64,000 nt of DNA from positions 535,551 through 599,550 of the forward strand of contig CAZNUP010000001.1 in NCBI GenBank assembly GCA_964576435.1, read 5' to 3'. A program made the translations under genes and the position numbers. The notes beneath the pieces were generated by a model, which did not search any database, was not told the origin of the DNA, and saw only the letters and a list, made by a program, of their open reading frames with translations. The stretch is from an uncultured Gammaproteobacteria bacterium. Its GTDB lineage: Bacteria > Patescibacteriota > Microgenomatia > JAMCZE01. Positions 6,180 through 26,220 of this stretch are shown piece after piece. Each line of letters opens with the position of its first letter. Positions within the stretch are counted from its first letter, which is position 1.

Positions 6180-6569
6180 ATGGCGGTAGCATTAAATCTC
6201 CATCCCGGAATAGAATCTGGACCAACAGTTACCATCAAAGATGATGAGGTTGCACTCACTTATGCTACAAGATTGCGTTTTCGTGAGGGCTTGTCAGATG
6301 TAAATTTGTTGATGGAAATTGCAGGGCAAAAAAGAGAGGTTGCAGTCTACGGTAATGGGCACGGGAGAGTTGTTGTTACAGATCCTTTAGATGAAAAAAA
6401 GAATCTCAAGGAAAATATGGAACCAAAAATCCCTTTGGAAGCAAAACTACCTTACTATTCGGTGATAATAGTTCGAAGCACAGACGAACAAAGTACGACC
6501 AGACCAGTTCTTTACGAACCAAAATCTGGAGATAGAATAGTAACATTTAGTTCAATAGTTGAAGGCTAA
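6180..6569 (+). CDS. hypothetical protein (129 aa)
   Basis: ORF only. Confidence 0.35.
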   Translation: MAVALNLHPGIESGPTVTIKDDEVALTYATRLRFREGLSDVNLLMEIAGQKREVAVYGNGHGRVVVTDPLDEKKNLKENMEPKIPLEAKLPYYSVIIVRSTDEQSTTRPVLYEPKSGDRIVTFSSIVEG

Positions 6570-7165: not shown

Positions 7166-7711
7166 TTATTCAACACTTCCGAGGCGGTTAGTTGGCCAAA
7201 AGCGAAAAGCCACTTTTCCAACTATTTTTTCTTTGGAAACTGGTCCGAAATCTCTTGAATCACTAGAATGCTCCCTATTATCTCCCATGACAAAGTAATA
7301 CCCGTCTGGAATTAAAAGCTCTTGGTTTTCTGACAAGTAATTTTCAGGTCCAGTAAAAGTTCCCGAAGAAATGTATTTTTCTTCCAAAACTTGCCCATTT
7401 ATAAACACTTTCCCGTCTTGAATCATAATTCTTTCCCCTGGAAGTCCCACAATACGTTTAATAAAATCGACTTCTGGGTTCCTGGGGGATTCAAGTATTA
7501 CAAAATCACCGCGTTCAGGATTATGAAGGTGATAAGATACCTTTTCTGCAAATACTTTCTCTCCAGTCTTGATTGTTGGATATGATGAAGCACCAACCAC
7601 AGCTGCCGGTTGGACCAAGAAAAGGTAAGTGACGGCAAAAATCCCAAGAGCAAAAGCAGTTGATTCTACAAAGCTCCATGCTGCGTTCAAAACCGATTTA
7701 GAAACTTTCAT
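7166..7711 (-). CDS. lepB: signal peptidase I, second tandem paralog
   Basis: ASSYPTI, DFIKRIVGLPGERI and VMGDNREHSSDSRDFGPV are present. Likely start is MKVSKS at 7711, preceded by GGGAG; the ORF track extends it to 7789. Confidence 0.8.
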   Translation of the reverse strand: MKVSKSVLNAAWSFVESTAFALGIFAVTYLFLVQPAAVVGASSYPTIKTGEKVFAEKVSYHLHNPERGDFVILESPRNPEVDFIKRIVGLPGERIMIQDGKVFINGQVLEEKYISSGTFTGPENYLSENQELLIPDGYYFVMGDNREHSSDSRDFGPVSKEKIVGKVAFRFWPTNRLGSVE

Positions 7712-8039
7712 TTCTATCTCCCTTGTGTAATTCTCCCATTCCAGACTGAATAATTGCTGTATGTTTGTCTGCGCCCTCTTCATAAGCACGTTGTGCCTTT
7801 TTTCTATTTTTTTGGGCCAAATCGATCATGAACTGATTCTCCCAAGCTCCCTGTTCAGAGTCAAAAATCTTAATAGACACTAAGTATCTAATCCGGTCTT
7901 GAACCACATTAAGCTTTCCCTGGCCGTAATTAAACGACCTATTATCAATATTTTTAAGAGCTTCTAAGTGTCCGCTTGCTTTCAATTTATCGTACCAGCC
8001 TTTTATTTCAGGTGTCATAAGTGATTTATATGATATCAT
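7698..8039 (-). CDS. hypothetical protein (about 113 aa)
   Basis: ORF track runs to 8135, but the first internal Met (MISYKSL) at 8039 leaves the tRNA-like element intergenic. Confidence 0.35.
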   Translation of the reverse strand: MISYKSLMTPEIKGWYDKLKASGHLEALKNIDNRSFNYGQGKLNVVQDRIRYLVSIKIFDSEQGAWENQFMIDLAQKNRKKAQRAYEEGADKHTAIIQSGMGELHKGDRNESF

Positions 8040-8051
8040 AAAGCTAATCGA

Positions 8052-8126
8052 GGACTCGTAGTTCACCAGCAGAACGCTCGATTCACATTCGAGAGGTAGG
8101 AGGAGCGTCACCTCCCGGGTCCACCA
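8052..8126 (+). ncRNA. noncanonical tRNA-like element (anticodon CAC, discriminator A, encoded CCA)
   Basis: Perfect cloverleaf. Acceptor GGACTCG/CGGGTCC (one G-U). U8 A9. D stem GTTC/GAAC with loop ACCAGCA (no GG). Anticodon stem CTCGA/TCGAG with loop TTCACAT. T stem GGAGG/CCTCC with loop AGCGTCA (no TTC). Acceptor stem is identical to tRNA-Asp at 38926-38998. Confidence 0.4.
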
Positions 8127-10462: not shown

Positions 10463-10636
10463 ATAACTAGACTCATTTGAAAGGATTTACATGATCCAAA
10501 AAAAATCATAAAATTTTATATGATTAAGTAAAATGCAAAAAGAACTGTTTTTTAATATTTTAAAGTTAGCAACTGTAGCAAGTGTTGCATTTACAGTACA
10601 AGGATAAAATTTGGTGAACGTCACAAAGTTAAACAG

Positions 10637-10942
10637 ATGAGTATCCACGCAGGATCAGATAATGGCTCTTTAACTCTGTCCACAACAGAAGCAAATCAGG
10701 ATATAGTTACTATAGCAACAGGACAAGCCGGAACTATCCATATAATAGATTTGGAAACAAACGAAGAACATAAAATTGGGGTTTGGGATGACAGGCGAAA
10801 GTTTGGACGTATAGGCCGTGCTGCCATGCGTCTAAATAATGGTCCAGAACAATCTTTTGAAATGCCTTTTGTGAATAAATCACTAGAAGGTTTATCAAAA
10901 ACTTTTGTTCAATGGCAACCGAGAGTCACAGTCTCTGAGTAA
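10637..10942 (+). CDS. hypothetical protein (101 aa)
   Basis: ORF. An upstream inverted repeat AACTGTA-N13-TACAGT lies at about 10574-10600. Confidence 0.35.
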   Translation: MSIHAGSDNGSLTLSTTEANQDIVTIATGQAGTIHIIDLETNEEHKIGVWDDRRKFGRIGRAAMRLNNGPEQSFEMPFVNKSLEGLSKTFVQWQPRVTVSE

Positions 10943-10945
10943 TTA

Positions 10946-13240
10946 TCAAAATTGTGTGGTCAATTTCTTTAAAACTCCTTTTAGAAGTTTAGTTTTAACA
11001 GGCTTCAGATCTTTTGTGCCGGTTGCATCATAGTGCCAACCTTTAATCTCAAAATCTCCATCTTTCATTGATTTAACTAATAAATCCTTTTGTTTTGTTT
11101 TTCCACCTTTAACAAACAAAACATTTGGATCGGGATTAACTGTCTCCTCGCCAACTTCTTTATTTGTTTGAATCTCAACATTTGGATCAGTCGAATAATA
11201 TAAATTTACTGACGCCGGCTCAGCGAAAGCAATCGGACCAATGAGAGAAAGTCCCAAGAATTGTAAAATATCAGCAACTGGTTGTTTCGAATTTAAATAT
11301 TCGATATGTTCAAGTTTGTAATTCTTATTAATTGCACCAGAAACATTAGAACTACTTGCTAAAACAGTCCCATCACCCACATCTTTTTTAGAAACTTTTG
11401 GGTCACCATCTATCCAAATTCCATTCGCTAAATCTTTTGGTTTAGTAGGTTTAACTGTTAATTCAGAATCAGTCGCTTTCGGTTTATTTCCAGATAAAGC
11501 CAGTGTTCTAGAAGAAAAGTCTAGTGAAAGTGGAAGATTAAATAGCACCGGGTTTTTCCCCACACTGGACAAAGAAGAATATGGTTTACCAACTATATAA
11601 TCATGTATTGGCATAAAATCATGTGCTCCGGGCATTCCAAGTTGGATCGCTTGTGTTTTGTTTCCTCCGCCATTTAGTCCAAAATAAAGTTCCGCACCAA
11701 ACTTTCCTAGTGGGTCTAGTGAAGAAAGATCTCCGCCCTCCCAAAACGCATAATCAGCTACTGCACCTTTATGTGGTGTTCCCGCTGTCACTATTTTGTT
11801 TATCTTGTCCTTACAAGTCGGAACTTGTTCAAAACAATATCTAGCAACTAGTCCTCCCATAGAATGTCCAACAATATCGACCTTTTGGCCAGGATTCTTA
11901 GTTAATACTTCATTATCTAGATATTCATTAAGCCAAGCACCAGAAACACCAATTGTCTTAGTAAAATCATAAGCAAAGAAAAAGACTTTGTCGTTTCTCA
12001 AGTAATTTAGTTTACCAAGTGCATTAAGGAATGGATTATAAATTGATGGGGCCTGGAACGGCATCATCGTCCAGTCACGATAGCTTGTCGGCTGATGTAA
12101 AAGAAGTCCCTTGGTAGAAAAACTTCCTCCAAAACCGGGAATAACTACAATTGGGTGAGGTCCAGGCACGGGTGTTGGACTAGGAGTTGGAGTTGGTGTT
12201 TGAGTGGGTGTTGGAGTTGGACTTGGAGTTGCAGAATTTGAGGCCACAAAAATTCCCAAACCTTCAACGCCTGCTACTACAATCCCATTTTTAGCATCAA
12301 TTCCCCAGGTATTGCGGTCTCCCCATGAGGGGTCTTGTACATTTTCCCAAGTTTCTCCAACGTTAGTTCCCTTCCAGATTCCACCATTTGGATTGGAAAA
12401 AATAACACTGGCATATAGGGTGTCGTCCAAATCTTGAGAAAGTCTGTAAACTTTACCTTTGGGTCCTCCCAATAACCATGTCCACGAAACACCATTGTCT
12501 ATAGATTTATAGACCCCCTCATCAGAGTCGAAATGAGCGGTATAAATAATTGAGCTATTAGTATTGTCAATAATGATGCTGTCACCAAAAGCTTTGCTTA
12601 GTGGTAGTACAGTCCAATTAAGTCCAAAATCATCGCTTTTATAAAAAGCAGGGTCAGTACCTATAAACAACCTATTCGTGTTTGATCTATCAAATTCAAT
12701 TTGAGCCACATTTGTATTTCCTATCTCAGTTACCTGGCTCCAATTATTTCCACCGTCAGTTGTCCTAAATACTCCTTGACTCCCAAGCATTCCGATATAA
12801 ATTACATCTTGGTTTGAAGGGTTAATTTCAATTGTCTTTGGTGTACCCGTGTTGTAAATTTTTTTCCAAGTAATCCCTCCATCATCAGTTAGATAAAATC
12901 CAGACCCCCAAAGCCCAATCACTATTAGTTTGGAGTTATTTGAAATATCAGATATCCATGTTATATCACCTGTATTAGGCAAGTTTCCCTTAATACTTGT
13001 CCAAGTTTGACCATTATCAGAACTTTTTAATAAGTCATATAATCCATTTTGATCTGCTGCGGCATAAACTGTGGAGTTAATAGATGAAGAAAATTTTATA
13101 AAACCAATCCTGCTCGTTAATACATTGTAAGTATTGTACCAAGTTAAGGGAGAAGCATTTGCAAATTTTGGAAGTATACTAAAGGTTGCAAATATTAAGA
13201 GAAAAAATAAATATGAACTTATTATTTTCTTAATTAGCAT
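10946..13240 (-). CDS. secreted fusion protein: BNR/Asp-box beta-propeller, Pro/Thr linker, LCAT/PGAP1-like lipase domain, C-terminal domain
   Basis: Signal peptide present. At least five SxDxGxTW Asp-box repeats (SSDNGQTWTS, TDDGGITWKK, TTDGGNNWSQ, SDDFGLNWTV, SIDNGVSWTW). PT-rich linker. Lipase elbow VDIVGHSMGGLVARY. Confidence 0.7.
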   Translation of the reverse strand: MLIKKIISSYLFFLLIFATFSILPKFANASPLTWYNTYNVLTSRIGFIKFSSSINSTVYAAADQNGLYDLLKSSDNGQTWTSIKGNLPNTGDITWISDISNNSKLIVIGLWGSGFYLTDDGGITWKKIYNTGTPKTIEINPSNQDVIYIGMLGSQGVFRTTDGGNNWSQVTEIGNTNVAQIEFDRSNTNRLFIGTDPAFYKSDDFGLNWTVLPLSKAFGDSIIIDNTNSSIIYTAHFDSDEGVYKSIDNGVSWTWLLGGPKGKVYRLSQDLDDTLYASVIFSNPNGGIWKGTNVGETWENVQDPSWGDRNTWGIDAKNGIVVAGVEGLGIFVASNSATPSPTPTPTQTPTPTPSPTPVPGPHPIVVIPGFGGSFSTKGLLLHQPTSYRDWTMMPFQAPSIYNPFLNALGKLNYLRNDKVFFFAYDFTKTIGVSGAWLNEYLDNEVLTKNPGQKVDIVGHSMGGLVARYCFEQVPTCKDKINKIVTAGTPHKGAVADYAFWEGGDLSSLDPLGKFGAELYFGLNGGGNKTQAIQLGMPGAHDFMPIHDYIVGKPYSSLSSVGKNPVLFNLPLSLDFSSRTLALSGNKPKATDSELTVKPTKPKDLANGIWIDGDPKVSKKDVGDGTVLASSSNVSGAINKNYKLEHIEYLNSKQPVADILQFLGLSLIGPIAFAEPASVNLYYSTDPNVEIQTNKEVGEETVNPDPNVLFVKGGKTKQKDLLVKSMKDGDFEIKGWHYDATGTKDLKPVKTKLLKGVLKKLTTQF
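12120..12245. repeat. low-complexity GTTGGAGTTGG-type DNA repeats encoding the Pro/Thr linker
   Basis: Tandem near-repeats ggtgttggactaggagttggagttggtgtttgagtgggtgttggagttgg. Confidence 0.5.
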
Positions 13241-13268
13241 TAATTAATTTATTTAATAATTCACATAT

Positions 13269-14036
13269 ATGTCAATAGGGGGAAATTTAAGTGTAGTTAT
13301 TCCTACTTATAATTGCTCTAATCTATTAGATAGATGTCTCAAAAGTGTAAAGTGGGCAGATGAAATAATTGTGGTTGATATGGGTTCGACTGATAATACA
13401 TTAGCAATTGCAAAAAAATATAAATCAAAAATATTTATTAGATATCCAATAAACGGAAACTTTGACGAAAATAGGAAATATGGAATGCAAAAATGCTCGA
13501 GTCAGTGGATACTAAAAATTGACTCTGATGAGTATTTGACAAGTGAATTAAGTGAATCTATCCTCCAAGCCATTAAAAAAAATGAGTCCGACTACAATGG
13601 ATATTTGCTATTTAACAAAATAATTATGTTTGGAAAAGTAATCAGTACAGGTGTTATTAAAAACAAATCAAATGAATTGAGACTAGTTAAAAATGGTTTT
13701 TGGAAATATTTTCCCTATAAATATCATCAACAAATTTATGTTTCAGGAAAAGTTAAGTCTTTAAAAGGTTTTTATTATCACGAGAATTATAGAACTGTAA
13801 ATGAGTTCATACAAAAAACTAATAAGTACACAGAATTAGATTCTAAAATTAACGCAAATCAGAAAAAAGTAAATTTATTCAAAATTTTGGTAGCCCCGTA
13901 CTTGAAATTTTTTTCATATTTTATTTTGCAAGGTGGCTATAAACAAAATATAATCGGATTTGAAACGTGCTTTTTATTTAGCTTATATAATTTTATTGAC
14001 AAGATAAAAACTTTTGAAAAGCAGAGCAATTTATGA
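13269..14036 (+). CDS. glycosyltransferase family 2
   Basis: LSVVIPTYNCSNLLDRCL…EIIVVDMGSTDNT. Confidence 0.8.
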   Translation: MSIGGNLSVVIPTYNCSNLLDRCLKSVKWADEIIVVDMGSTDNTLAIAKKYKSKIFIRYPINGNFDENRKYGMQKCSSQWILKIDSDEYLTSELSESILQAIKKNESDYNGYLLFNKIIMFGKVISTGVIKNKSNELRLVKNGFWKYFPYKYHQQIYVSGKVKSLKGFYYHENYRTVNEFIQKTNKYTELDSKINANQKKVNLFKILVAPYLKFFSYFILQGGYKQNIIGFETCFLFSLYNFIDKIKTFEKQSNL

Positions 14037-15163
14037 AGATAGCTTTGATTCGCGGTGATTTTGCAAACCCTTGGGAACTCCAAAACTTTAGCTCAATTGG
14101 GCAAGACCAAAAGATGACTTTGTTCACGGGCAGGCTTCCAATATCTAAAGAACTTCCTAGTGAATTAGAAACGAAGTCGCTTTATAGTCCTATGGATTTA
14201 AACTTTGGTTCAATTTCAAGAATGAAAATGGCATTTCTTAACAGGGTATTTTCAAATCCACACATGCTTTTTGGATTGGAAAAAGAATTAAAAGGGTTTG
14301 ATATTGCACATTCAGCCGAAACATATTTTTACTTTACAAAACAATCAATAGCGGCAAAGAATGAAGGTAGTGTTAAATTTGTAGTTTCGACGGTTTGGGA
14401 AAACATTCCATTTAATAATGAGTCGTTATTAGGTTTTAAGAAAACAAAAGAATTTTGTAGAAAAAATATTGATCTTTTCTTACCTGTAACAATCGGAGCT
14501 AAAAAGGCTCTAATTGAGGAAGGAGTAAAAGAGGAAAAAATCAATGTATTAATGCCCGGTATAAATATAAATAAATTTATCCCTATTCAGAAATATAAAA
14601 ACGAAAAAAAATCAAAAAAGAACAAGTCGATTCTTTTTGTAGGTAGGTTAGAGGAAGACAAAGGAGCATATGATATGGTTAGTATATTAGGCCCGAAAAT
14701 ATTTAATACAAACATCAATTTGGTTATCATTGGGAAAGGATCATTGGAGCAAAAAATTGTAAATTATGTAAAAAAAACTAGAAACAAAAATATACAACTA
14801 ATCCGAGAGGTAAAATATGAAGATATGCCAGCAATGTATAACAAGGCTGACCTTATGATCCATCCCGCATTTGGCTCAAAAACTTGGCAGGAACAATACG
14901 GAATGGTCTTAATCGAGGCAATGGCTTGCGGCACGCCTATAATAGCTGCTAATTCTGGAGCAATTCCGGAAATATTAGGGAACGCTGGAATGGTAAAAGA
15001 TAAAAAAAGCATTTTTTTTGAAGCTTTAAATATGATTAATAATAAAAGCCTGTTAATTAATATGTCTTTGTTATCAAGAAAAAGAGCAAAGGCAGAATTC
15101 GACAAAGAATCGTTTTCTAAAAATTTGGCTGGCTATTATAATAATTTGATGCGAAGAGTCTAA
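14033..15163 (+). CDS. glycosyltransferase family 1 (GT4-like)
   Basis: C-terminal GT1 signature FVGRLEEDKG…EQYGMVLIEAMACGTPIIAANSGAIPEILG. Confidence 0.8.
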   Translation: MKIALIRGDFANPWELQNFSSIGQDQKMTLFTGRLPISKELPSELETKSLYSPMDLNFGSISRMKMAFLNRVFSNPHMLFGLEKELKGFDIAHSAETYFYFTKQSIAAKNEGSVKFVVSTVWENIPFNNESLLGFKKTKEFCRKNIDLFLPVTIGAKKALIEEGVKEEKINVLMPGININKFIPIQKYKNEKKSKKNKSILFVGRLEEDKGAYDMVSILGPKIFNTNINLVIIGKGSLEQKIVNYVKKTRNKNIQLIREVKYEDMPAMYNKADLMIHPAFGSKTWQEQYGMVLIEAMACGTPIIAANSGAIPEILGNAGMVKDKKSIFFEALNMINNKSLLINMSLLSRKRAKAEFDKESFSKNLAGYYNNLMRRV

Positions 15164-15170
15164 ATTATTT

Positions 15171-15974
15171 ATGAGTGAAGAGTTATTAAAATGTCCCAAC
15201 TGTCAAAAAAAAGATTGGTTTCTTTATTATTCACAAAAAGAGTTTGCGTTATTAAGGTCCCCCTGTGGGTTAATTAGAACCATTGTAAAAAGAAAAAACG
15301 ATTTTGTTAGCGGTAAAATATATGAATATAAAAGTGAGGCAAACAAGCATTACCGCCATCAAGCTAAAGAATTTACCCAATTTGCAAAATCTATAATAAG
15401 ATTTCTTGATAAAAAAGGTGGAACCCTCCTTGATATTGGATGCGGATTCGGATGGGTTGTTAAAGAAGCCAAAGATCAAGGATTCAACTCTACTGGTATA
15501 GACTCTTCTCATCCATACACTGAATTTGGTAAAAAGAAGCTAAATGTTGATCTTAAAAATGTTTCTCTAAAAGAATTTAATACTAAAAAAAAGTACGACA
15601 CAATAATATTGAATCATGTCTTGGAACATATAGTCGATTTAAATAAATCTCTTTTTAAAATTCATTCGCTATTAGTTAATAAAAATGCAGAATTCTTTAT
15701 TGCATCTCCAAACATCAATTCCTTAATGTTTAAAATTTTCAAAAATAAGTGGTATGGATTGCAGCCTAATCAACATGTCTGGCAATTTAGTCCAGAGTCA
15801 CTTGGTGAAATTTTACGTGTAAACAATTTTAAAATTAAAAAAATAAAAACATGTAATTTAAATTATGAAGTTAAAGGGTTAAAAGGAATTATATTTTCAA
15901 TGCTTTTATTTATCGCTCCAAAAATTGGACAAGGAGATCAGATATTTTTGATTGCAACAAAAAATGAAAAATGA
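15171..15974 (+). CDS. class I SAM-dependent methyltransferase
   Basis: Motif I LLDIGCGFGWV; N-terminal CxxC. Confidence 0.7.
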   Translation: MSEELLKCPNCQKKDWFLYYSQKEFALLRSPCGLIRTIVKRKNDFVSGKIYEYKSEANKHYRHQAKEFTQFAKSIIRFLDKKGGTLLDIGCGFGWVVKEAKDQGFNSTGIDSSHPYTEFGKKKLNVDLKNVSLKEFNTKKKYDTIILNHVLEHIVDLNKSLFKIHSLLVNKNAEFFIASPNINSLMFKIFKNKWYGLQPNQHVWQFSPESLGEILRVNNFKIKKIKTCNLNYEVKGLKGIIFSMLLFIAPKIGQGDQIFLIATKNEK

Positions 15975-16653
15975 AACTTATGCAATTATTATTGATTTTC
16001 ATTCGAAGAGAGAAGTTTCAAGTCTTTCAAAGAATATTTCTCCTTTGGTCTCCAGGATAATAATTATTGATAACTCTGAAACAAACAGGGGATTCTCTAA
16101 AGCAGTTAATTTGGGAGTTAAACAAGCTATTGAAGAGGGTGCAACGCAAGTATTGTTAATTAATCCAGATATAAATATTTCCAGACTTAATCTCGAGGTT
16201 CTTCTTAATTCGAATTTTGATATTGCAGCTCCTGTTTTAACTTTCAAAAGAAACAAAGACACTATTTATGATTACGGTGGTAAAGTAAATTTTTTTCTTG
16301 GACGTCCTACTCATCTGGAAAATAGAAAATCAGAAAATATTGATTTTGTATCTGGAGCCTGTATGTTAATTAAAACCGATGTGTTTAAAAAAATAGGGTA
16401 TTTCGATGAAAGATTCTTTATGTATTTCGAAGATGTAGACTTTTGTTTACGTGCCAAACGTGATCATTTAACTGTTGGAGTAGTTGAAGATTCAATAGTG
16501 GGCCATTCTATTTCAGAGCACAAAGTAGTAAAAAATTCCGACAAAGAAAAATATATTCTGACAAGTAATTATGAGTTTATTAAAAAATGGGTTCCTTGGT
16601 ACTTTTCTCCTTTTGCCTTTTTATATTTAAGCCTTCTCAAATTAAAAACTTAA
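15952..16653 (+). CDS. glycosyltransferase family 2
   Basis: IIIDNSETN…FMYFEDVDFCLRA matches the GT2 DxD/ED region. Confidence 0.7.
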   Translation: MQQKMKNETYAIIIDFHSKREVSSLSKNISPLVSRIIIIDNSETNRGFSKAVNLGVKQAIEEGATQVLLINPDINISRLNLEVLLNSNFDIAAPVLTFKRNKDTIYDYGGKVNFFLGRPTHLENRKSENIDFVSGACMLIKTDVFKKIGYFDERFFMYFEDVDFCLRAKRDHLTVGVVEDSIVGHSISEHKVVKNSDKEKYILTSNYEFIKKWVPWYFSPFAFLYLSLLKLKT

Positions 16654-18153
16654 ATAAACATTATCTTTTCCAGCAGGCTTTATCCCAACAATAATTGGTT
16701 TAAGATTATATTTCTGAGTCACATTGTTTTGATTAACCTTATAATTGTTTCTGACCACGAAATAAGTTTTGTCAAATCTTATTGGTTTTGTTTTGTTTGT
16801 TGGAATAAATTCTTGAGATGCAATTTTCTCCAGTGGCCATCTTTCTTCTATCCAAACATTAGGATTATCCCAAAACTCCAGAAAAAACGCATTCGGATAA
16901 TGGCTAAAGCTCCCTTGAACAATTAAATGAATTTTTTTAGTTTCACTCTCTTCGTGTAATTTTTCAAAAATTGGTTTAAATCCATATCCTGATGGGAACC
17001 CTTCAACATATTGCCATTTATCAATTGCGGGGAAGTTTGCCAATTCCGGTTTTGTAATTAAAAAATAATCGAACTTAATTGCTAGAAATAATAAAAATGG
17101 TACAACGCACAAAAAGACTAATTTGTTCTTATTGCCTAATTTTTCCAATAAAAAAGATAGTGGTAATAAGAAAAATGGTAGGGTAAATAAGATATATCTT
17201 GGAAAGTAAATTCGAGCTACAAAAGAAAACCCAATCAAAGGAACAATACTTAAGATCACAAAAACTGCACCTAGCCTAGGTCTCTTAATAGTTAAATAAA
17301 TTAATGAGACAAAAAAAGCAAGCAAAATTGGTCCAGTAATGTAGTGATTTAGCCAGTCATAAGTTAAAGATAAGTTAGTGGCAAAATATATTCCACTAGA
17401 AGTGTAGTCAGTGGCTTTAGTTAAATAGTCCAAGTACCCGTGAGAAACTATTTGTAAGTTAACAATAATTTGACTAATTAAAACAGCAATTAAAATTAAC
17501 CAAATTTTTTTAAATCCACCAATAATTAGAAAACAAATTGGAGTTAAAACCTCAAACGAAACCGCAGACGCCTTAGTAAGAAGTGCTAGTCCCAAAAAAA
17601 TACCCCATAAAGCTGCATGTTTTATTTTATGAGTGTAGCCAGATTTAATTACAAAATATATTGTCCATACAAGAAAGGCACAAAGCATGGAGTCATATAA
17701 AGTCATCCGGTCGTGAAATAGCGCAAATGGGGAAATTACATATAAAAATGAAGCTCCAAGTCCAACCTTTTTACCAAAACAAATTGCACCCAACTTATAT
17801 GTCCCCAAAAGCGTTACTAGCCCAAAAAAAACTGAGGGCAACCTACCCGCAAGTAGATAGTGCTCAGGTGGTAAAACTTTTAACCAAAAGGCTATAGTCC
17901 AGATATAAGGCGCTGGTTTTCCATAAGCTAGTGGCAGGAACCATCCCGCACTCCCCGTTAGCATTCTCTTTGCCCAAAAAATATAGTTTGCTTCGTCAAA
18001 AAAAATTGGTAACAAAGTCAGGTTGTATAATCGGGTGAACAAGTAGAGGCCGATAATTATGAACCAAAACACCAAAATAAATATCTTAGTTTTATTTTTC
18101 TTTTCACTCATCACGCTCATTATAACTTGGCCTCTTATTTTGAATCTAGGCAA
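16642..18153 (-). CDS. GT-C fold membrane glycosyltransferase (family 39 / ArnT / PMT-like)
   Basis: About 12 TM helices. N-terminal loop and the FDEANY region resemble ArnT/PMT_2. Confidence 0.6.
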   Translation of the reverse strand: MPRFKIRGQVIMSVMSEKKNKTKIFILVFWFIIIGLYLFTRLYNLTLLPIFFDEANYIFWAKRMLTGSAGWFLPLAYGKPAPYIWTIAFWLKVLPPEHYLLAGRLPSVFFGLVTLLGTYKLGAICFGKKVGLGASFLYVISPFALFHDRMTLYDSMLCAFLVWTIYFVIKSGYTHKIKHAALWGIFLGLALLTKASAVSFEVLTPICFLIIGGFKKIWLILIAVLISQIIVNLQIVSHGYLDYLTKATDYTSSGIYFATNLSLTYDWLNHYITGPILLAFFVSLIYLTIKRPRLGAVFVILSIVPLIGFSFVARIYFPRYILFTLPFFLLPLSFLLEKLGNKNKLVFLCVVPFLLFLAIKFDYFLITKPELANFPAIDKWQYVEGFPSGYGFKPIFEKLHEESETKKIHLIVQGSFSHYPNAFFLEFWDNPNVWIEERWPLEKIASQEFIPTNKTKPIRFDKTYFVVRNNYKVNQNNVTQKYNLKPIIVGIKPAGKDNVYLSF

Positions 18154-19537
18154 CTTTATTTTAGATCCCTACGATGCAGTCTTAATTAATTGGATTATCA
18201 ATTGGAATATTTTCCATCCATTATCTTTAAATACAAACATCTTTTTCCCTTATACAAAAACCCTAGCCTATTCGGATCCCCATTTAGTTTCATCGCTAGT
18301 TGCAGCACCATTCGTGCTATTTTTTAAACAGCCCCTTTTAGGAGCAAATATTAATTTGTTGCTAGGGTTTGTTTTGACTGCCTTTTCAACTTATCTTTTA
18401 ACAAAAAACCTAACAAAAGACTATAAAATTTCACTTCTTGCAGGTACTTTGTTTGCTTTTGGTTCAATTCACATGGGCTACTTGCACCACCTTCAGCTTT
18501 TTGGATTCTGGCCTTTTATTTTTGCGCTTTATTTTTTCTATAAGGAAAAATTGACACTATTTGTAATCTTTTTTGTTTTGTCAGTTGCCACCATGCCCCT
18601 ATTTTTCTTTTTCTTCATGGCATTCTTCATTTTTGCTCCGAAAAAACATATTAAATATGTATTTTTATCTTTTGGTTTATCTCTCTTAATCTTTGTTCCA
18701 TACTATTTAGTCTCGAAAGAGTTTGGTTATGTTCGTCCATTAACTGACACAATCCATTTCTCATTAAAGATTCATGATTTTTTTAAACCGAACGAAGCAT
18801 CTCGGTTAGGAATTTTTGCAGGAATTGGCACCTTAATACTATTAATAGGGTATCTGTTCCAAAAAAATAAGTTAAATCGTTACTTTTTACTAAGCATTTG
18901 TTGTTTTATTTTAGCTTTTGGTCCCGCCTTCCATGTCTTTGAAAATACAGTGCATGTTGGTCCATTGCCAGCAATCCCAATGCCATATTTAATTCCTTAT
19001 TATCTTTTACCAGGGTTTTCCGGATTTAGGACTCCTTCCAGATGGATTTTATTAGCTTTTTTTGCTTTCGTTATAGCTTTAAGTATTGTCTTAAAAAATA
19101 AGCTTGCTAAAAAGATAACAGCGCTATTAGTAATAATAATTATTTTAGAAGTTAATTTTCCATTTACCTATATAAATATGCCCAGTCATTCGGAATTTCC
19201 ACCAGAACAAATTTGGCTAGAACAAAATTACCAAGGTGCGCCAATTGTCCAATTTCCAATTTATGGATGGTTTGACAACGAAAATGTTGCCGTAGAAACT
19301 AGGAGAATGCATTACGGAATAACTCAAAACCATCCAATGTTTAATGGCTATTCAGGTTTTTCCCCAAAAAGTTGGGAACGGCGAGTTCAATGGCTACAAA
19401 AAGAATTTCCAAATGAAAATTCAATCAATTATCTAAAAAGTTTAGGGATTAAACTAATTGTCACTCCTAAAGTGTTAAAATCAAATCAGGTTAAATTAAT
19501 AGAATCTTTCCCAAATAATAATATCTATGCTCTCTAA
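18059..19537 (+). CDS. polytopic membrane protein, probable GT-C-like glycosyltransferase
   Basis: Many TM helices in the N-terminal 400 aa plus a soluble C-terminal domain. Start is probably internal, because the ORF overlaps the divergent gene. Confidence 0.4.
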   Translation: MNQNTKINILVLFFFSLITLIITWPLILNLGNFILDPYDAVLINWIINWNIFHPLSLNTNIFFPYTKTLAYSDPHLVSSLVAAPFVLFFKQPLLGANINLLLGFVLTAFSTYLLTKNLTKDYKISLLAGTLFAFGSIHMGYLHHLQLFGFWPFIFALYFFYKEKLTLFVIFFVLSVATMPLFFFFFMAFFIFAPKKHIKYVFLSFGLSLLIFVPYYLVSKEFGYVRPLTDTIHFSLKIHDFFKPNEASRLGIFAGIGTLILLIGYLFQKNKLNRYFLLSICCFILAFGPAFHVFENTVHVGPLPAIPMPYLIPYYLLPGFSGFRTPSRWILLAFFAFVIALSIVLKNKLAKKITALLVIIIILEVNFPFTYINMPSHSEFPPEQIWLEQNYQGAPIVQFPIYGWFDNENVAVETRRMHYGITQNHPMFNGYSGFSPKSWERRVQWLQKEFPNENSINYLKSLGIKLIVTPKVLKSNQVKLIESFPNNNIYAL

Positions 19538-20162
19538 AATAACAATTACAAATAAAAATGGATTTGATGAGATTCACATTACAGAAAACGGAAAAACTTC
19601 TAATTTAAAACGAGATTTAAATGGCGATTACGCTGCGCAAAGAAATTACGCATTAGAAAAAGCAAAAGGTGACTGGGTATTTTTTATTGATACCGATGAA
19701 AGTATAGAGGATGATTTTGACCATATTCCAAGTGGTTATGAAGCGTTTAAGTTTAAAAGATTGGATAACTTTTTTGGGAAAACTCTTCATCATGGGGAAG
19801 CTGGAAACATAAAATTAGTAAGACTTGCTAAAAAAGATTTTGGCAAATGGATTGGTAAAGTTCATGAAGTGTGGGTCGGTAATGGAAAAGTAGGAACTTG
19901 GCCCAAACCAATAATTCACACCCCACACCCAACCATTAGTGAATTTATTAAAGAGATTAATGCTTACACGACAATTTATGCAAAAGATAATAAAAATTTT
20001 TCCTATTTTGATCTTGTAAAACCACAAGGAAAGTTTATCTACAATTATTTTTTTAAACTTGGTTTCCTTGATGGATTAGCCGGATTTGTCATGGCCTATA
20101 TGATGTCACTTCATTCATTAATTGCAAGAGTTAAACAATATGAACAGATCCGCACTCATTAA
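19527..20162 (+). CDS. divergent GT2-like glycosyltransferase
   Basis: EIHITENGKTSN (compare EIIVVDDGSTD), AAQRNYALEKAKGDWVFFIDTDE (compare the GT2 xDD motif). Confidence 0.5.
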   Translation: MLSKITITNKNGFDEIHITENGKTSNLKRDLNGDYAAQRNYALEKAKGDWVFFIDTDESIEDDFDHIPSGYEAFKFKRLDNFFGKTLHHGEAGNIKLVRLAKKDFGKWIGKVHEVWVGNGKVGTWPKPIIHTPHPTISEFIKEINAYTTIYAKDNKNFSYFDLVKPQGKFIYNYFFKLGFLDGLAGFVMAYMMSLHSLIARVKQYEQIRTH

Positions 20163-21498
20163 ATTTCTCCTCTTAGTAGCTCTAGGCACATCTTTTTTTA
20201 TAAATTTTCTAGGAGCGCTATCTCCAGAATTAGGTTTTGATGCGCTGTGGTATCACTTAACTCTTCCAAAACTCTATTTAGAAGCAGGTAAAATTTACCA
20301 CGTTCCAGGAGGCCTTCTTTACTATTCCGAAATGCCCAGGCTAGCTGAGTTTGTTTATATTCCATTAATCAAACTATTAAGTGATACGGGTCCTCACCTT
20401 TTAAATTGGCTAGCGGGAATTGGAACAATTGTCGTTCTCTATAAAGTTTCAAGAAGGTTCTTAGGTCCGCTTCCAAGCCTATTAGCAACAACACTTTTTT
20501 ATACAACTCCATTAGTTGGGTGGCAGTCGGGAAGCGCGTATATAGATTTAATTAGGACATTTTTTGAAGTTTTAGCTTTCTACCTCGTTATCGAAAGAAA
20601 ATATGTTTGGGCAGGGGTTGTATTAGGTTTAGCAATCTCCACAAAAACTTTAGCTTTAGGATCAATTCCAATCCTGGCTATTATTTCATTTCTCAAGGAA
20701 AGGAAAATTATTACACCGTTAATAATAATTGTTATTCCACTTGTTGTGGCATTCCCTTGGTTCTTAAGTGCTTACAATAATACTGGATTTCCGTTTTATC
20801 CAATTGGAGCTGGAACTCTTGATTCAACTCACAGCACAAATATTGATTTTTGGAATATACCCAGGATCATTCATGATTATGTCGGTCTCTTTTTGTTTCC
20901 AACTGATTTGATATCTCCAATTTACCTTTTATTTATTCCCTTTATTTTCTTTCTATCCAAAAAGGTTCCAAGAAAATCTTTAAATCTATTATTAACCTAT
21001 TTTATTTTGGCATTTTTAATGTGGTACTTTATTCCAAGAACTGGTGGAGGTAGATTTATTCTGCCATATCTTCCAGTTATTTCTGTTCTTGTTGCCTTTG
21101 TTTATGCTTGGCAAAGAAACAAAATTTTAAAATTGGTTTTAATTTCTTTAATAATTGGTTCGATTGGTGTAAATGTTTTGTATAGAGGTTTGGCAGTTTC
21201 AAGAAATATTCCATATTTAATTGGCAAACAAACAAAAGAACAATTTTTGTGTGAAAGATTAGACTTCACAACTAGCGTATTTGTTGATTGTGACGGCTTC
21301 TTTAAAAACAATATTAAAAAAACTGATTTAGTTTTAGTAAAAGGTGTTCACAATCTTTTTTATATTAATTTTCCTTTTGTGCACGAAACCTGGTACAAGG
21401 GGGAAAAGTATAATTACGTAATGACTCAAAAGCCAATTAAAGGCAAAGTTCCGGTTTACAAAAACACAAAAACCAATATCTATCTCTATAAATCATGA
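20122..21498 (+). CDS. polytopic membrane protein, GT-C/PMT_2-like
   Basis: About 11 TM helices; same architecture class as 16642-18153. Confidence 0.45.
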   Translation: MQELNNMNRSALIKFLLLVALGTSFFINFLGALSPELGFDALWYHLTLPKLYLEAGKIYHVPGGLLYYSEMPRLAEFVYIPLIKLLSDTGPHLLNWLAGIGTIVVLYKVSRRFLGPLPSLLATTLFYTTPLVGWQSGSAYIDLIRTFFEVLAFYLVIERKYVWAGVVLGLAISTKTLALGSIPILAIISFLKERKIITPLIIIVIPLVVAFPWFLSAYNNTGFPFYPIGAGTLDSTHSTNIDFWNIPRIIHDYVGLFLFPTDLISPIYLLFIPFIFFLSKKVPRKSLNLLLTYFILAFLMWYFIPRTGGGRFILPYLPVISVLVAFVYAWQRNKILKLVLISLIIGSIGVNVLYRGLAVSRNIPYLIGKQTKEQFLCERLDFTTSVFVDCDGFFKNNIKKTDLVLVKGVHNLFYINFPFVHETWYKGEKYNYVMTQKPIKGKVPVYKNTKTNIYLYKS

Positions 21499-22577
21499 AG
21501 TATCTTTTATTTGCACTAATTCTTTTTTTGGCATTCGGGCAGCTAGGTCGGTTTGAATTTCAAAGTATTGTAGTTCATTTAAACGATCTTTTTGTTTTCG
21601 GCTTACTTTTAATTTGGCTTGTAAAAACAAAAGGTAAATCCATTAAAAATGACCCGTTAACAAAACCATTAGCTCTTTTTGTAGGAGCCATGTTCCTTTC
21701 AACTATATTTAATCCATTTAAATTTCCTGCATTTCTTTATTTAGTTCGCTTTGTAGCTTATGCCGGCTTATATTTTGTTGCCAAAGATCAAATAGGGGAC
21801 AGAAAAATAATTTTAAAACTAATGGAGATTGCCATTCTGGGAGTAGCGGTAGTTGGAATTTTACAATTTGTATTTGTTCCGGACGTTAGTTCACTAAAGG
21901 CTCTTGATTGGGATGACCATTATTATCGCCTTATAAGTACATTTCTAGATCCAGGCTTTACTGGAGCCATGCTAGTTTTGGGTCTAATATTGGCGGTTCT
22001 TGAAAGATCTCGCATCCAGGCAGTTATCCTCTATGTTGCTATGGCTTTAACTTATTCTAGGGCAAGTTATTTAATGTACCTATTTTCTTTTGCAACAATC
22101 TCATTTTTTAAAAACTCCGTAAAAATATTTTTGATAGCACTCATCATCTTAGTTATCACAATTCCACTGCTTCCAAAATCAACTGGTGAAGGCACAAAGC
22201 TAAATAGGGAAAATAGTGTCACAGCGAGACTAAATAATTGGAATAAATCTATTGAAGTTTGGGAAACAAAGCCAGTCTTTGGAATTGGATTCAATTCTTA
22301 TAGATATGCGGTAAATGTTTCTCCACAAAGCCATTCAGGGGGTGCAGACAATTCTCTGCTTCTAGTATTAGCAACTACGGGAGTTGTTGGCTTTGCTGCC
22401 TATATTTTTCTTCTAAAAAAGACTTGGGATATGGGGGATTTGCTTTTTAGAGCAAGTCTCGTAGGAATAATTGTTCATAGTATGTTTAATAACACACTCT
22501 TTTATCCCTGGGTAATGGAGTGGCTGTGGATATTATTAGCTTTATCAGCTACAAAAAATTATAATAAAAAGAAATGA
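21495..22577 (+). CDS. O-antigen ligase/polymerase (Wzy_C) family membrane protein
   Basis: Polytopic protein with periplasmic loop GFNSYRY…HSGGADNSLLLVLATTG. Confidence 0.6.
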   Translation: MKYLLFALILFLAFGQLGRFEFQSIVVHLNDLFVFGLLLIWLVKTKGKSIKNDPLTKPLALFVGAMFLSTIFNPFKFPAFLYLVRFVAYAGLYFVAKDQIGDRKIILKLMEIAILGVAVVGILQFVFVPDVSSLKALDWDDHYYRLISTFLDPGFTGAMLVLGLILAVLERSRIQAVILYVAMALTYSRASYLMYLFSFATISFFKNSVKIFLIALIILVITIPLLPKSTGEGTKLNRENSVTARLNNWNKSIEVWETKPVFGIGFNSYRYAVNVSPQSHSGGADNSLLLVLATTGVVGFAAYIFLLKKTWDMGDLLFRASLVGIIVHSMFNNTLFYPWVMEWLWILLALSATKNYNKKK

Positions 22578-22957
22578 AAACAATCCTCGTCGACGCCATA
22601 GGCACATTCTCTGATACAAACGGCGAGATATTTGCTGATCTTCATAAGCTTTTAGAATCTTATCCAAACAAAAAGATCTTAGTCACTGGTGCAAACGATG
22701 AACAGTTTAAGTTATGGAAACTAGAGACAGTGCCTTATGAGGTTTTTACATTAAAGCACAATCCAGAAAAAACTAGCCCAGAATATTTTCAAAAGTTATT
22801 AAATCAATTTAGATTAACAAAAGACGACCTTGTCTATTTTGAGCACAATCCAGAAGCAGTTAAAAGTGCGCAGTTGGTAGGAATTGAATCGTATTACTTT
22901 GACGAAAAGAAAAAAGATCTAGAAGCCCTAAAAGATTTTCTTAGTGCTCATATTTAA
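22574..22957 (+). CDS. hypothetical HAD-like small protein
   Basis: ILVDAIGTF resembles a degenerate HAD motif I. Confidence 0.35.
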   Translation: MKTILVDAIGTFSDTNGEIFADLHKLLESYPNKKILVTGANDEQFKLWKLETVPYEVFTLKHNPEKTSPEYFQKLLNQFRLTKDDLVYFEHNPEAVKSAQLVGIESYYFDEKKKDLEALKDFLSAHI

Positions 22958-23645
22958 GATTCATCTCCTGCTTGGTTTCGTTTCCGGCCTCATCAGATCC
23001 AATAATTGTGATTTTATTGTCTCCACTATTTAGGTTCATATAATAGGAGAAGTTTCCTTGACTATCAACAATTGCCATATTACCGTTGACAGTAACTGTA
23101 GCGGTAATTGGGTCAACTTTACCAGTGAATGTATAAGGATTATCCCTGACTGTGTCTCCGTCTTTGTTTGTTGTCTCAAGTTTTGGTCCACTTGTTGAGA
23201 AAAAGACTATATAGCTGTCTGATGGTTCGCTTTTCTTACCCGAATTGGTAATTGTCCTGGCAACTAAGTCATTTTTGCCCTTTACAAGGGTAACATCGTC
23301 AAAAGTAAATTTTCCTGACTTATCCGCAGTAGCAAGTCCCACTGAAACCGTATTTCTTTCAAGCTCTACTTTGGAATTTGGATCAGCAATACCTGTTACT
23401 TTTATTTCAGCTGACTTTGTCGCCTCGAAGTCTCGGTTTAAAGTGGGGGAGTTTAAAACCACTTCTTCTGGACCTTCAACGGTCTCAGTTTCTTTGCCCA
23501 TCCCACTAATTGTGTTAGCAAGGCCAAAAAGAGCAGGTACTCCAAAATAAATGAAGATGCCCAATAAAAGTATTGACCCAGCAAGGAAAAACATGATTGT
23601 CATCTTGCTATTTCTGTCACCCTTTCGCTCAAGACGTGTTTGCAT
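22941..23645 (-). CDS. membrane-anchored extracellular protein with Ig-like beta domains
   Basis: N-terminal TM helix followed by Thr/Ser-rich beta-strand repeats. Confidence 0.4.
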   Translation of the reverse strand: MQTRLERKGDRNSKMTIMFFLAGSILLLGIFIYFGVPALFGLANTISGMGKETETVEGPEEVVLNSPTLNRDFEATKSAEIKVTGIADPNSKVELERNTVSVGLATADKSGKFTFDDVTLVKGKNDLVARTITNSGKKSEPSDSYIVFFSTSGPKLETTNKDGDTVRDNPYTFTGKVDPITATVTVNGNMAIVDSQGNFSYYMNLNSGDNKITIIGSDEAGNETKQEMNLKYEH

Positions 23646-24860
23646 AATTTTCTAAGTCCAAGCTATAATACTACTTCTGTGTTAAAAAACAAAAATTTAC
23701 TCATCGTCGGCCTCATTGCAATAGTTGATGCCCTAGGTTATGGCATCATCATTCCAATTTTGTATTCTTACAGTCAAAAATTTGGGCTAACTGACTTTCA
23801 AAATGGTCTCCTTTTTGCTCTTTTCTCACTTTGCACATTCCTAGCAACTCCAATAATTGGGAGAATGTCTGATAAATATGGAAGAAAACCACTTTTAGTT
23901 TTTTCCTTAATTGGCACAGCAGCCTCATTCTTAATGATGGCTTTCGCCCCAAGTGCAATTTTCCTATTTTTAGCAAGAGCTCTTGATGGTGTGACAGCCG
24001 GAAATATTCCAGTTGTCTCTGCAGTTATTTCAGATAGTACAGAAGGCAAAGATAGAGCCAGAGGATTTGGCATAATTGGAGCTGCTTTTGGCTTTGGTTT
24101 CGTTTTTGGCCCAGGAATTTCTGCTTTTACAGTGGGAATTAATCCTATGTTCCCATTCTTAATTGCAGCCGTTATGACAACAATAGCCATAATTTTGACA
24201 GCAGTGCTTCTTCCAGAAACAAATAAACATATTGGACAAGTCGAAGATAAAAAGCTTTTTGATTTCAAAAAACTAGCGGCATCGCTTTTTGACCCAAATA
24301 TTGGAAGAACATTATTAGTTACCCTTCTTGTTGCTTTTGCATTTGGAATGTTCATTTATGCTTATCAACCTTTCTCAGTTAAGGTTCTTAATTTGAATCC
24401 AACTCAAATTTCAACCAATTTTGTTATCTTTGGTATTGTTGGATTGATTTCTCAGCTTGTTTTAATTCCAAGAATCACAAAGAAGTTTGGAGACCTAAAA
24501 TCTTTTGTTTCAGCGATTTTTCTCTTAGCAATATCAATGACCTTAATCTATTTCACCCCAGGATTAATTTACTTCATGGTTGTTTCAGTGGCACTATCTC
24601 TAGGAAACTCATTTATTATGCCTCTTGTGCAAACCTTGCTTTCAAAAGAAGTGGATGCCAAATCGCAAGGAACAATCATGGGTGTCAATGCTTCCTATAA
24701 CAGTTTAGGATTCATATTTGGTCCAATCGCCGGTGGATTAATCGCCACCTACTCACTTGAGGCTCCTTTTCTGGCTGGAGGAATTGTAAGTTTTGCTGCT
24801 CTTGCAGTTGCTACCCATATCTTCTTAACCAGTAGAACCAAGAAAGTGAGTGAGTTTTAA
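23640..24860 (+). CDS. MFS transporter
   Basis: 12 TM helices; GRMSDKYGRKPLL MFS loop motif. Confidence 0.8.
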   Translation: MHNFLSPSYNTTSVLKNKNLLIVGLIAIVDALGYGIIIPILYSYSQKFGLTDFQNGLLFALFSLCTFLATPIIGRMSDKYGRKPLLVFSLIGTAASFLMMAFAPSAIFLFLARALDGVTAGNIPVVSAVISDSTEGKDRARGFGIIGAAFGFGFVFGPGISAFTVGINPMFPFLIAAVMTTIAIILTAVLLPETNKHIGQVEDKKLFDFKKLAASLFDPNIGRTLLVTLLVAFAFGMFIYAYQPFSVKVLNLNPTQISTNFVIFGIVGLISQLVLIPRITKKFGDLKSFVSAIFLLAISMTLIYFTPGLIYFMVVSVALSLGNSFIMPLVQTLLSKEVDAKSQGTIMGVNASYNSLGFIFGPIAGGLIATYSLEAPFLAGGIVSFAALAVATHIFLTSRTKKVSEF

Positions 24861-25614: not shown

Positions 25615-25920
25615 ATGGACAATTCAACCCCATTCCCTTTAAAAGAAGCTATCTCTCTTGGTGAGTATGATCCTCAAGTTCTTGGGAAATACCCCGAGTG
25701 GCAAAACCTTTCTAATCACGCAAGATTTCAGTTAATTAGCCAAGGACTGGAAATTAGGAGAAAGCAACTATTCACAAAGTGGTCAGAAATTGTGAATTTT
25801 ATTGATGATTCTGATAACCCAAGTCTTCAAGACGAAGCAAAAACAAACATTGAGAGACAAATTAAAAAACTTCGCGAAGAAAAAGAGCGGCTTTATTTGG
25901 AATACTCAAAGCTAACTTAA
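25615..25920 (+). CDS. hypothetical protein (101 aa)
   Basis: ORF only. Confidence 0.35.
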   Translation: MDNSTPFPLKEAISLGEYDPQVLGKYPEWQNLSNHARFQLISQGLEIRRKQLFTKWSEIVNFIDDSDNPSLQDEAKTNIERQIKKLREEKERLYLEYSKLT

Positions 25921-26220
25921 TTTTTTTAACTCTCTGCCCCTCTTTGTTATTGCTCCAATTTGTAGCCTGTAAGCCGCTCTATTTTCTTTCTCATAAACCA
26001 TCTCAGTTCCTATTATTTGGGCACAATTAAGGCAGGTAAGATTTTTCTCAAATTTAGTTATTCCTATAATTCTGTCTAAATACATCCTCTTTAGCATTCC
26101 AGGGCCATCTTTTTGGTAAAAGCAAACATGTGCCCCACACTTCGAACAAGAAATATCTAGAAGTTTAGAAGTCCCACCGCGACTTCTTCTGAATTGGTCC
26201 CTTTTAAATTTCGCTCTCAT
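25912..26220 (-). CDS. hypothetical zinc-ribbon protein
   Basis: CSKCG…CLNC four-Cys arrangement. Confidence 0.4.
   Translation of the reverse strand: MRAKFKRDQFRRSRGGTSKLLDISCSKCGAHVCFYQKDGPGMLKRMYLDRIIGITKFEKNLTCLNCAQIIGTEMVYEKENRAAYRLQIGAITKRGRELKKLS

Follow-up and report, generated by a model that had tools for sequence, protein, structure and literature searches.

A lineage-typical glycan assembly locus of Microgenomates with GT-C-type glycosyltransferases of three families and a Wzy_C protein

Among the described systems that come closest to the locus presented here are the Gtr-type three-component systems of Gram-positive and Gram-negative bacteria, such as GtrA/GtrB/GtrC, CsbB-GtcA-YfhO, GtlA/GtlB and GacI/J/K/L (PMC8035078, PMC11127046). 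There, genes of GT-A-type glycosyltransferases (GTs) adjoin genes of polytopic GT-C enzymes that carry an acidic motif in their first loop, and a sugar is expected to be transferred outside the cytoplasm from polyprenyl phosphate to an envelope polymer. Rismondo et al. also describe multi-component variants of transmembrane glycosylation where the GT-A is soluble and has a distinct membrane protein as its partner, and they speculate that small GT-Cs need an additional acceptor-binding protein (PMC8035078). Our locus resides in a stretch of 64,000 nucleotides, here called the window (positions 535,551 to 599,550 of contig CAZNUP010000001.1, assembly GCA_964576435.1), from a bacterium of the Microgenomatia within the candidate phyla radiation (CPR, Patescibacteria). 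It comprises nine open reading frames, ORF1 to ORF9 (Table 1). With the Gtr-type systems it shares the vicinity of GT-A and GT-C genes, the acidic first-loop motif and the expected route of transfer; GT-Cs such as GtlB belong to the PMT_2 family, as does ORF5. Unlike these systems, it lacks a membrane-anchored GT2 of the GtrB/CsbB type, neither GtrA nor Wzx is present in the window, and three GT-C families, one of them of the uncharacterised DUF6311-like type, stand together with a Wzy_C protein in one block. All statements on absence refer to the 64-kb window, in which the ORFs of at least 150 amino acids (aa) plus selected small ORFs were scanned; the genome measures 710 kb or more.

The Wzx/Wzy and O-antigen ligase pathways (Wzy, WaaL, PglL, WsaB) also invite comparison. 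ORF9 passes the Wzy_C model and retains the invariant outer-loop arginine and histidine residues, and the variable arm of GT and methyltransferase genes resembles serotype-variable loci. Unlike these pathways, the window contains no Wzx, no Wzz and no initiating transferase. To our knowledge, an outer membrane or a lipid A acceptor is not to be expected in CPR bacteria. The locus can be filed neither as a Gtr-type system, because the GtrB-type synthase and the flippase were not found in the window, nor as a complete Wzx/Wzy locus, because the priming enzyme, Wzx and Wzz were not found there. It is a lineage-typical, conserved glycan assembly locus. Loci that combine GT-A or GT-B enzymes with several GT-Cs and Wzy_C are already established in the envelope biogenesis of Gram-positive bacteria and actinobacteria, and no concept is overturned.

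The nine ORFs were confirmed at 13269-22577, i.e., from the start of ORF1 to the stop of ORF9, in order and on the strands reported by the first-pass annotation. The composition it had proposed was borne out by the ORF list and by scans with Pfam and NCBIfam: GT2, GT4, a methyltransferase that depends on S-adenosylmethionine (SAM), GT2, PMT_2 on the minus strand, an unannotated polytopic protein of 492 aa, a reduced GT2, a PMT_2-like polytopic protein and Wzy_C. From ORF6 through ORF9, successive stops and starts overlap. An identical gene set was assembled independently in four sequencing runs (ORF6 could be traced to contigs of all four), and more than 10 related genomes display the same gene order at protein identities of 30-66%. 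The locus is real, far beyond chance.

Synteny was analysed in 80 genome loci that encode relatives of ORF6 (numbered with an L below) and in several metagenome contigs, which were searched with the proteins of the window. Relatives with a name are called Microgenomates, Gottesmanbacteria, Levybacteria or Patescibacteria. The recurring order begins with a propeller-lipase gene (minus strand), GT2, GT4, a methyltransferase with variable extras, GT2 and, in some loci, PMT_2 (minus strand); it continues with a DUF6311-like GT-C, a small GT2, in some loci a GT87, an ORF8-type GT-C, Wzy_C and an immunoglobulin (Ig)-domain protein (minus strand). Most stable is a core of DUF6311-like GT-C, small GT2, ORF8-type GT-C, Wzy_C and the Ig-domain protein, which is kept in Levybacteria even at about 30% identity (L017, L021). 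The variable cytoplasmic arm may further contain a hexapeptide acetyltransferase, an AsnB-like amidotransferase and extra GT2 or methyltransferase genes. Because the propeller-lipase gene is usually found upstream, and the convergent Ig-domain gene belongs to the core, the conserved block is larger than nine ORFs; the functional unit is more aptly taken to span 10946-23645. The locus is vertically inherited in Microgenomates. The first-pass annotation had called it unusual to see several GT-C genes side by side. In the Microgenomates lineage such runs are the norm, and as many as four GT-C genes accompany Wzy_C in some relatives. Records of metagenome-assembled genomes titled "uncultured Gammaproteobacteria bacterium" (L009, L010, L013-L015, L017, L040) also carry a locus of the Microgenomates type, with ORF6 identities of 32-46%; these titles are probably taxonomic mislabels.

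The GC content is about 0.37 for the whole window; most of it lies at 0.36-0.44, and values drop to 0.31-0.33 over the locus (12001-22000). This drop raised the question of a mobile island, which was ruled out, since a 559-kb Patescibacteria contig (GCA_023380635.1) has the same long-range gene order: one flank carries FtsW, the UPF0020 methyltransferase, ParB and signal peptidase, the other LysM, PolX and M48. The locus therefore belongs to the core chromosome, and the conserved flanks argue against a recent horizontal acquisition despite the low GC content, to which the AT-rich codon usage of membrane proteins likely contributes. Promoter and terminator scans of 10500-24000 yielded sites no more numerous than in shuffled sequence and say nothing on operon structure.

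Table 1. Features of the locus and its immediate neighbours in the window (TM, transmembrane helices; cut-offs in bits are the Pfam gathering cut-offs used; PT, proline/threonine)
Feature	Position	Strand	Assignment	Family matches and remarks
Propeller-lipase	10946..13240	-	Secreted 764-aa protein: BNR/Sortilin-type beta-propeller, PT-rich linker, PGAP1/LCAT-like alpha/beta hydrolase (GHSMGG)	Sortilin-Vps10 1.4e-13; PGAP1 1.9e-13; LCAT 2.3e-9
ORF1	13269..14036	+	Soluble GT2 (GT-A) glycosyltransferase	Glycos_transf_2 4e-23; 0 TM
ORF2	14033..15163	+	GT4-type (GT-B) glycosyltransferase, cytoplasmic	Glycos_transf_1 1e-26; Glyco_trans_1_4 6e-23; kept in relatives
ORF3	15171..15974	+	SAM-dependent methyltransferase, variable arm	Methyltransf_23 1.7e-23
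ORF4	15964..16653	+	GT2, rhamnosyltransferase-like subgroup	TIGR01556 7.6e-18 (below cut-off); weak Pfam GT2 models
ORF5	16642..18111	-	PMT_2-family GT-C glycosyltransferase	PMT_2 1.4e-12, 48.5 bits (cut-off 26.1)
ORF6	18059..19537	+	DUF6311-like GT-C glycosyltransferase, AftA/AglB-like architecture (TM core and C-terminal globular domain)	
ORF7	19527..20162	+	Reduced GT2	Glycos_transf_2 6e-7, profile positions 60-123 only; 0 TM
ORF8	20140..21498	+	Divergent PMT_2/GT87-like GT-C glycosyltransferase	
ORF9	21495..22577	+	Wzy_C-family polytopic protein (O-antigen ligase/polymerase-like)	Wzy_C 1.8e-16, 60.7 bits (cut-off 31.7)
127-aa ORF between the Wzy_C and Ig-domain genes	22574-22957	+		No family match; no counterpart in related loci
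Ig-domain protein	22941..23645	-	234-aa bitopic membrane protein, two extracytoplasmic Ig-like domains	Glucodextran_B 7.9e-18; Big_6 2.9e-8; one TM

The interpretation of the locus hinges on the three large polytopic proteins, ORF5, ORF6 and ORF8. A direct sequence search against solved structures with these proteins, ORF9 and the profiles A1 (the ORF6 family) and A3 produced ArnT, at E 0.22, as the only match. This gave nothing useful; the GT-C question was decided by fold comparison. ORF5 has 10 hydrophobic segments (about 10 TM) and a C-terminal outer domain. Its N-terminus consists of a short cytoplasmic stub, TM1 and then the first-loop motif FFDEANY (D39/E40 in the 489-aa numbering). The orthologues in L005 and L089 align with the N-terminus and TM1, and the D-E pair is retained. 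The PMT model PF02366 is not reached by ORF5. The protein is accessory, being missing from L090 and L091.

ORF6 has 9 hydrophobic segments, and scanning it directly against Pfam gives no family, even at E<=10. DUF6311 (PF19830) is unlisted for it in that scan; in precomputed tables, ORF6 and many homologues appear as weak matches to this family, and one orthologue as an unmarked match. A homologue search with ORF6 found 66 proteins, several with such weak precomputed matches. Its first loop reads D36-P-Y-D39 (D-x-x-D) directly after TM1. In an alignment of 35 sequences D39 is invariant, as are W45, P64 and G288-P289, while R324 and R328 are nearly so. The AlphaFold model is confident (pLDDT 91.2, pTM 0.90); its top fold match is the mycobacterial AftA, and PMT-like proteins rank among the top matches. 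An oligosaccharyltransferase was also considered in view of matches to AglB and STT3B and the AglB-like C-terminal domain, and was rejected, as the WWDYG motif is absent.

ORF8, which probably starts at 20140 (the 458-aa ORF begins at 20122), has 10 hydrophobic segments. It remains below the PMT_2 cut-off with 22.6 bits (vs 26.1) and reaches 19 bits with GT87. Its homologues at about 1e-100 bear PMT_2, PMT or DUF8201, and their sources name them GT39. In the first loop E36, D40, W43, Y44 and H45 (counted in the 458-aa ORF) do not vary among 33 sequences. The majority of its best fold matches, namely ALG12, ArnT, Pmt4, PIG-M, ALG9, ALG3 and PimE, are enzymes with polyprenyl-monophosphate sugars as donors, and from the fold we infer that the GT-C proteins of the locus would use polyprenyl-phosphate-linked donors, too.

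The three proteins share the topology (a core of about 7-13 TM), the first-loop acids and the fold of GT-C enzymes. How are they related to each other? A profile-profile comparison connects the families of ORF6 and ORF8 (94.4%, E 8.5e-8). ORF5 and ORF8 are 24% identical over 169 residues (E 0.01), and the link of ORF5 to the ORF6 family is weak. By these comparisons ORF5, ORF6 and ORF8 are enzymes of the GT-C type from three deeply separated families and not recent duplicates. The term paralogues, used in the first-pass annotation, is accordingly misleading, if recent ones were meant; its assignment of the three proteins to the GT-C type held, the acidic residues being conserved in the first extracytoplasmic loop of all three.

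Of course, polytopic proteins could also be transporters or something else entirely, and the gene run a chance juxtaposition. ORF6 without a Pfam match in the direct scan at E<=10 and ORF8 below the PMT_2 threshold might suggest so. Yet the fold matches, the connection of the ORF6 family to the ORF8 family at profile level, the conserved catalytic-loop acids and the synteny in more than 10 genomes speak against it. A lack of GT-C loop signatures with transporter matches in their place, named in the first-pass annotation as a refutation, was not seen. This highly improbable explanation is effectively refuted.

The start of ORF5 is at 18111, vs 17964 as picked by gene callers. As a consequence, ORF5 (minus strand) and ORF6 (plus strand) share 53 nt (18059-18111) in a head-to-head overlap; homology supports the N-terminus of each. 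In this stretch, opposite strands encode the stub in the cytoplasm and a portion of TM1 for the two proteins. The same overlap is seen in the 66%-identity relative L089 (9914-9966); another relative has a gap of 88 nt. Gene callers shorten one of the partners: ORF5, to 440 aa, in our window and the ORF6 orthologue in L089.

The cytoplasmic arm is made up of ORF1 to ORF4. The closest solved relative of ORF1 is the GT domain of GmaR, the flagellin O-GlcNAc transferase of Listeria (E 1.1e-16). GtrB, DPMS and ArnC are absent from its matches to solved structures even at E<=10. ORF1 is a paralogue of ORF7 (26% identity, E 9e-20), and TM helices are absent from both. A role of ORF1 or ORF7 as synthase of the GtrB/DPM1 type was considered and is unsupported, since both have 0 TM and no match to GtrB, DPMS or ArnC at E<=10. 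ORF2 weakly matches GT4 families that act on glycolipid anchors; all its GT4 matches, however, are non-specific and stay far under the curated cut-offs. ORF3 probably O-methylates the glycan, as judged from its family; it is found in some relatives, while others have a replacement or a duplicate. The mechanical ORF of ORF4 begins with a TTG at 15952, and gene callers choose the ATG at 15964, which probably is the true start.

ORF7 overlaps with both ORF6 and ORF8 (stop/start). Compared to orthologues of about 250 aa, the alignment shows it to be devoid of helix alpha1 and the DDxSTD nucleotide-binding stretch. It retains DxDE and several invariant histidine, glutamate and arginine residues, and its C-terminal helix (GKFxxNYFxKLGFLDGxAGF) shows strong conservation. 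Short orthologues of 198-228 aa occur in L014, L015 and L089-L091; the deletion was checked by alignment in L014 and L015. ORF7 may be a regulatory or scaffolding pseudo-enzyme or may have an altered donor binding. ORF9 also matches the NCBIfam model PEP_O_lig_1 (1.3e-7), and R189, R238, R245, R270, H280 and D285 are invariant in 8 orthologues. By its sequence, which does not distinguish between polymerase and ligase, ORF9 is a member of the Wzy_C family.

What do these proteins make? We consider it probable that the locus assembles an envelope glycan in two compartments, with a wall- or membrane-associated glycopolymer as the likeliest acceptor. The general proposal of the first-pass annotation, a lipid-linked glycan that is assembled and transferred to a surface acceptor, fits the gene content and the GT-C evidence. 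On the cytoplasmic face, nucleotide sugars would be used by the soluble ORF1, ORF2 and ORF4, along with the methyltransferase ORF3, to form and decorate a lipid-linked saccharide. On the outer face, after export, ORF5, ORF6 and ORF8 would add sugars from polyprenyl-phosphate-linked donors, a chemistry suggested by the observed folds and families. ORF9 would then polymerise the glycan or ligate it to its final acceptor. ORF7, which lies between two GT-C genes and is translationally coupled, is the strongest candidate for a partner that charges donors or regulates, and the Ig-domain membrane protein might be an acceptor-binding accessory. Both roles are speculative; that of the Ig-domain protein would fit the proposal that small GT-Cs require additional help in binding the acceptor (PMC8035078). 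Genes for the priming enzyme and the flippase would lie elsewhere in the genome. This reading is supported by the domain content, the first-loop acids, the overlapping ORF6-9, the conserved core with its variable arm, the conserved chromosomal surroundings and the donor class of the ORF8 matches. The architecture matches the multi-component transmembrane glycosylation systems (PMC8035078), and the locus would work much as they and the envelope pathways of Actinobacteria with several GT-Cs do.

Several points weigh against a glycopolymer pathway of this kind. The scanned ORFs of the window comprise no initiating phosphoglycosyl transferase (Bac_transf, Glycos_transf_4), no flippase of the Wzx/MATE (Polysacc_synt), ABC or GtrA type, no Wzz and no nucleotide-sugar pathway, nor does the window hold a donor synthase of the GtrB/DPM1 type. 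ORF1 and ORF7 lack TM helices and matches to GtrB, DPMS or ArnC, and their closest solved relative, GmaR, glycosylates a protein. ORF7 may be inactive, given the loss of parts of its nucleotide-binding region, and ORF5 is dispensable in some relatives (L090, L091). Four small ORFs were checked as GtrA-like flippases (2014-2427, 10637-10942, 25615-25920 and 25912-26220) without a relevant match; the first of them, with 137 aa and 4 TM, matches no family.

The GmaR relationship agrees with general protein O-glycosylation, a rather doubtful alternative. Here, the PMT_2-type GT-Cs and/or a PglL-like Wzy_C protein would modify Ser/Thr/Pro-rich segments of secreted proteins (the propeller-lipase, a PT-rich Fn3 protein and a LysM protein), in parallel to actinobacterial Pmt/Ppm1 and streptococcal GtrB/PgtC2. 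In Gram-positive bacteria GT-Cs do glycosylate disordered regions rich in Ser/Thr, the streptococcal GtrB/PgtC2 being an example (PMC11092751). ORF5 shares PMT_2 membership and the loop-1 DE motif with the eukaryotic and actinobacterial PMT/GT39 enzymes, which work with Ppm1/Dpm1; PMT-like proteins are top fold matches of ORF6 and ORF8; and the window encodes three PT-rich secreted proteins, one of them, the propeller-lipase, adjacent and syntenically linked. Such nearby proteins are a further likeness to the PMT systems and to GtrB/PgtC2. Unlike these systems, however, ORF5 misses PF02366, MIR domains are absent and no Dpm1/Ppm1/GtrB-like synthase was found. Moreover, the PT linker of the propeller-lipase is unconserved, being poly-Pro in most orthologues (L005, L006, L010), and was dropped as a conserved glycosylation target. 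The first-pass annotation had listed this protein as a candidate substrate; the linkage of its gene to the locus stands, and the substrate role is weakened. Also, a variable arm of several GTs, methyltransferase and acetyltransferase, together with Wzy_C, is more typical of polysaccharide loci.

Several different GT-Cs acting on one envelope glycan are likewise found in the mycobacterial and corynebacterial pathways to arabinogalactan, lipomannan (LM) and lipoarabinomannan (LAM), with AftA, AftB, AftD, EmbA-C and PimE/GT87. This likeness bears on a second alternative, a lipid-anchored lipoglycan similar to phosphatidylinositol mannosides (PIM), LM and LAM or to glycosylphosphatidylinositol (GPI). 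A glycerolipid would be glycosylated inside by the GT4 and GT2 enzymes and extended outside by the GT-Cs from polyprenyl-phosphate sugars, and the PGAP1/LCAT-like hydrolase would remodel the anchor. The weak GT87 match of ORF8, relatives with an extra bona fide GT87 gene, AftA as top fold match of ORF6, and PimE, PIG-M, AftB and AftD among those of ORF8 agree with this view. So do the weak matches of ORF2 to anchor-type GT4 families, the PGAP1/LCAT-like gene conserved beside the locus and the failure to find a polyprenyl-priming transferase in or near it. But Wzy_C plays no part in PIM/LAM or GPI pathways, the GT4 matches are as non-specific as stated, adjacency of the hydrolase is no proof of a shared pathway, and the missing priming enzyme refers to 64 kb of the genome only. 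Differences from the mycobacterial GT-Cs are evident, too: identities amount to 6-13%, genes for the synthesis of decaprenylphosphoryl arabinose (DPA) or polyprenyl phosphomannose (PPM) were not seen, and the organism, a CPR bacterium, has no mycolata envelope. We regard a lipoglycan as quite improbable.

The assembly of a wall- or membrane-associated glycopolymer remains our preferred interpretation. CPR bacteria are episymbionts that attach to their hosts via their surfaces, and their envelope glycans are essentially unknown. What can be offered here is a conserved locus with defined limits (10946-23645), a secure assignment to GT-C of two proteins that had been poorly annotated, together with their candidate catalytic residues, and a five-gene core module that lends itself to tracing through the phylum.

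The DUF6311-like proteins also deserve attention as a large GT-C family awaiting a function. At 50% identity the ORF6 family forms 29,111 clusters at E<=1e-3, 17,864 at E<=1e-10 and 6,007 at E<=1e-30. Its members, some of them with C-terminal F5/8 type C domains, occur in Acidobacteriota, Chloroflexota, Actinomycetota and Verrucomicrobiota. The locus neighbourhood is absent around the distant DUF6311-like proteins (Acidobacteriota, Chloroflexota, Actinomycetota and others). Literature searches, within the library used, found no paper naming DUF6311 and no relevant paper on CPR/Patescibacteria with GT-C, GT39 or mannosyltransferase or on glycosylation in Microgenomates. One may speculate that the DUF6311-like proteins are a very large, wholly uncharacterised GT-C family, and that its fixed five-gene module in Microgenomates, with a GT2 reduced at its nucleotide site, a PMT_2-like GT-C, Wzy_C and the bitopic Ig-domain protein, could be a CPR-specific pathway. 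It would build an envelope glycopolymer or lipoglycan mostly on the outer face of the membrane, perhaps anchored on lipids scavenged from the host and remodelled by the adjacent PGAP1/LCAT-like enzyme. We rate this idea as unlikely.

As to the neighbours, an orthologue of the propeller-lipase occupies the same position in nine loci (L005, L006, L009, L010, L011, L015, L089, L090 and L091); one relative has a Kelch-type propeller instead. The Ig-domain gene is found at its position in L005, L006, L012, L014, L015, L017, L021, L089, L090 and L091. In relatives it is always convergent with the Wzy_C gene, the 3' end of which it often overlaps. A gene of the major facilitator superfamily follows the locus; among the relatives only the closest, L089, has it, and the others lack it at that position. 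The two further secreted proteins with PT-rich linkers are encoded at 35727-37256 and 37840-38808, both on the minus strand; one has an Fn3 or purple-acid-phosphatase-N-like domain, the other two LysM domains.

Elsewhere in the window, an ORF of 748 aa (31522-33768, plus strand) has no Pfam match at E<=1e-4. ARAGORN predicts a tRNA-Val(CAC) at 8052-8126 (plus strand), and an Rfam scan at gathering threshold gives only the other five tRNAs. Two paralogues of signal peptidase I (S26) lie next to each other at 6566-7129 and 7166-7789 on the minus strand.

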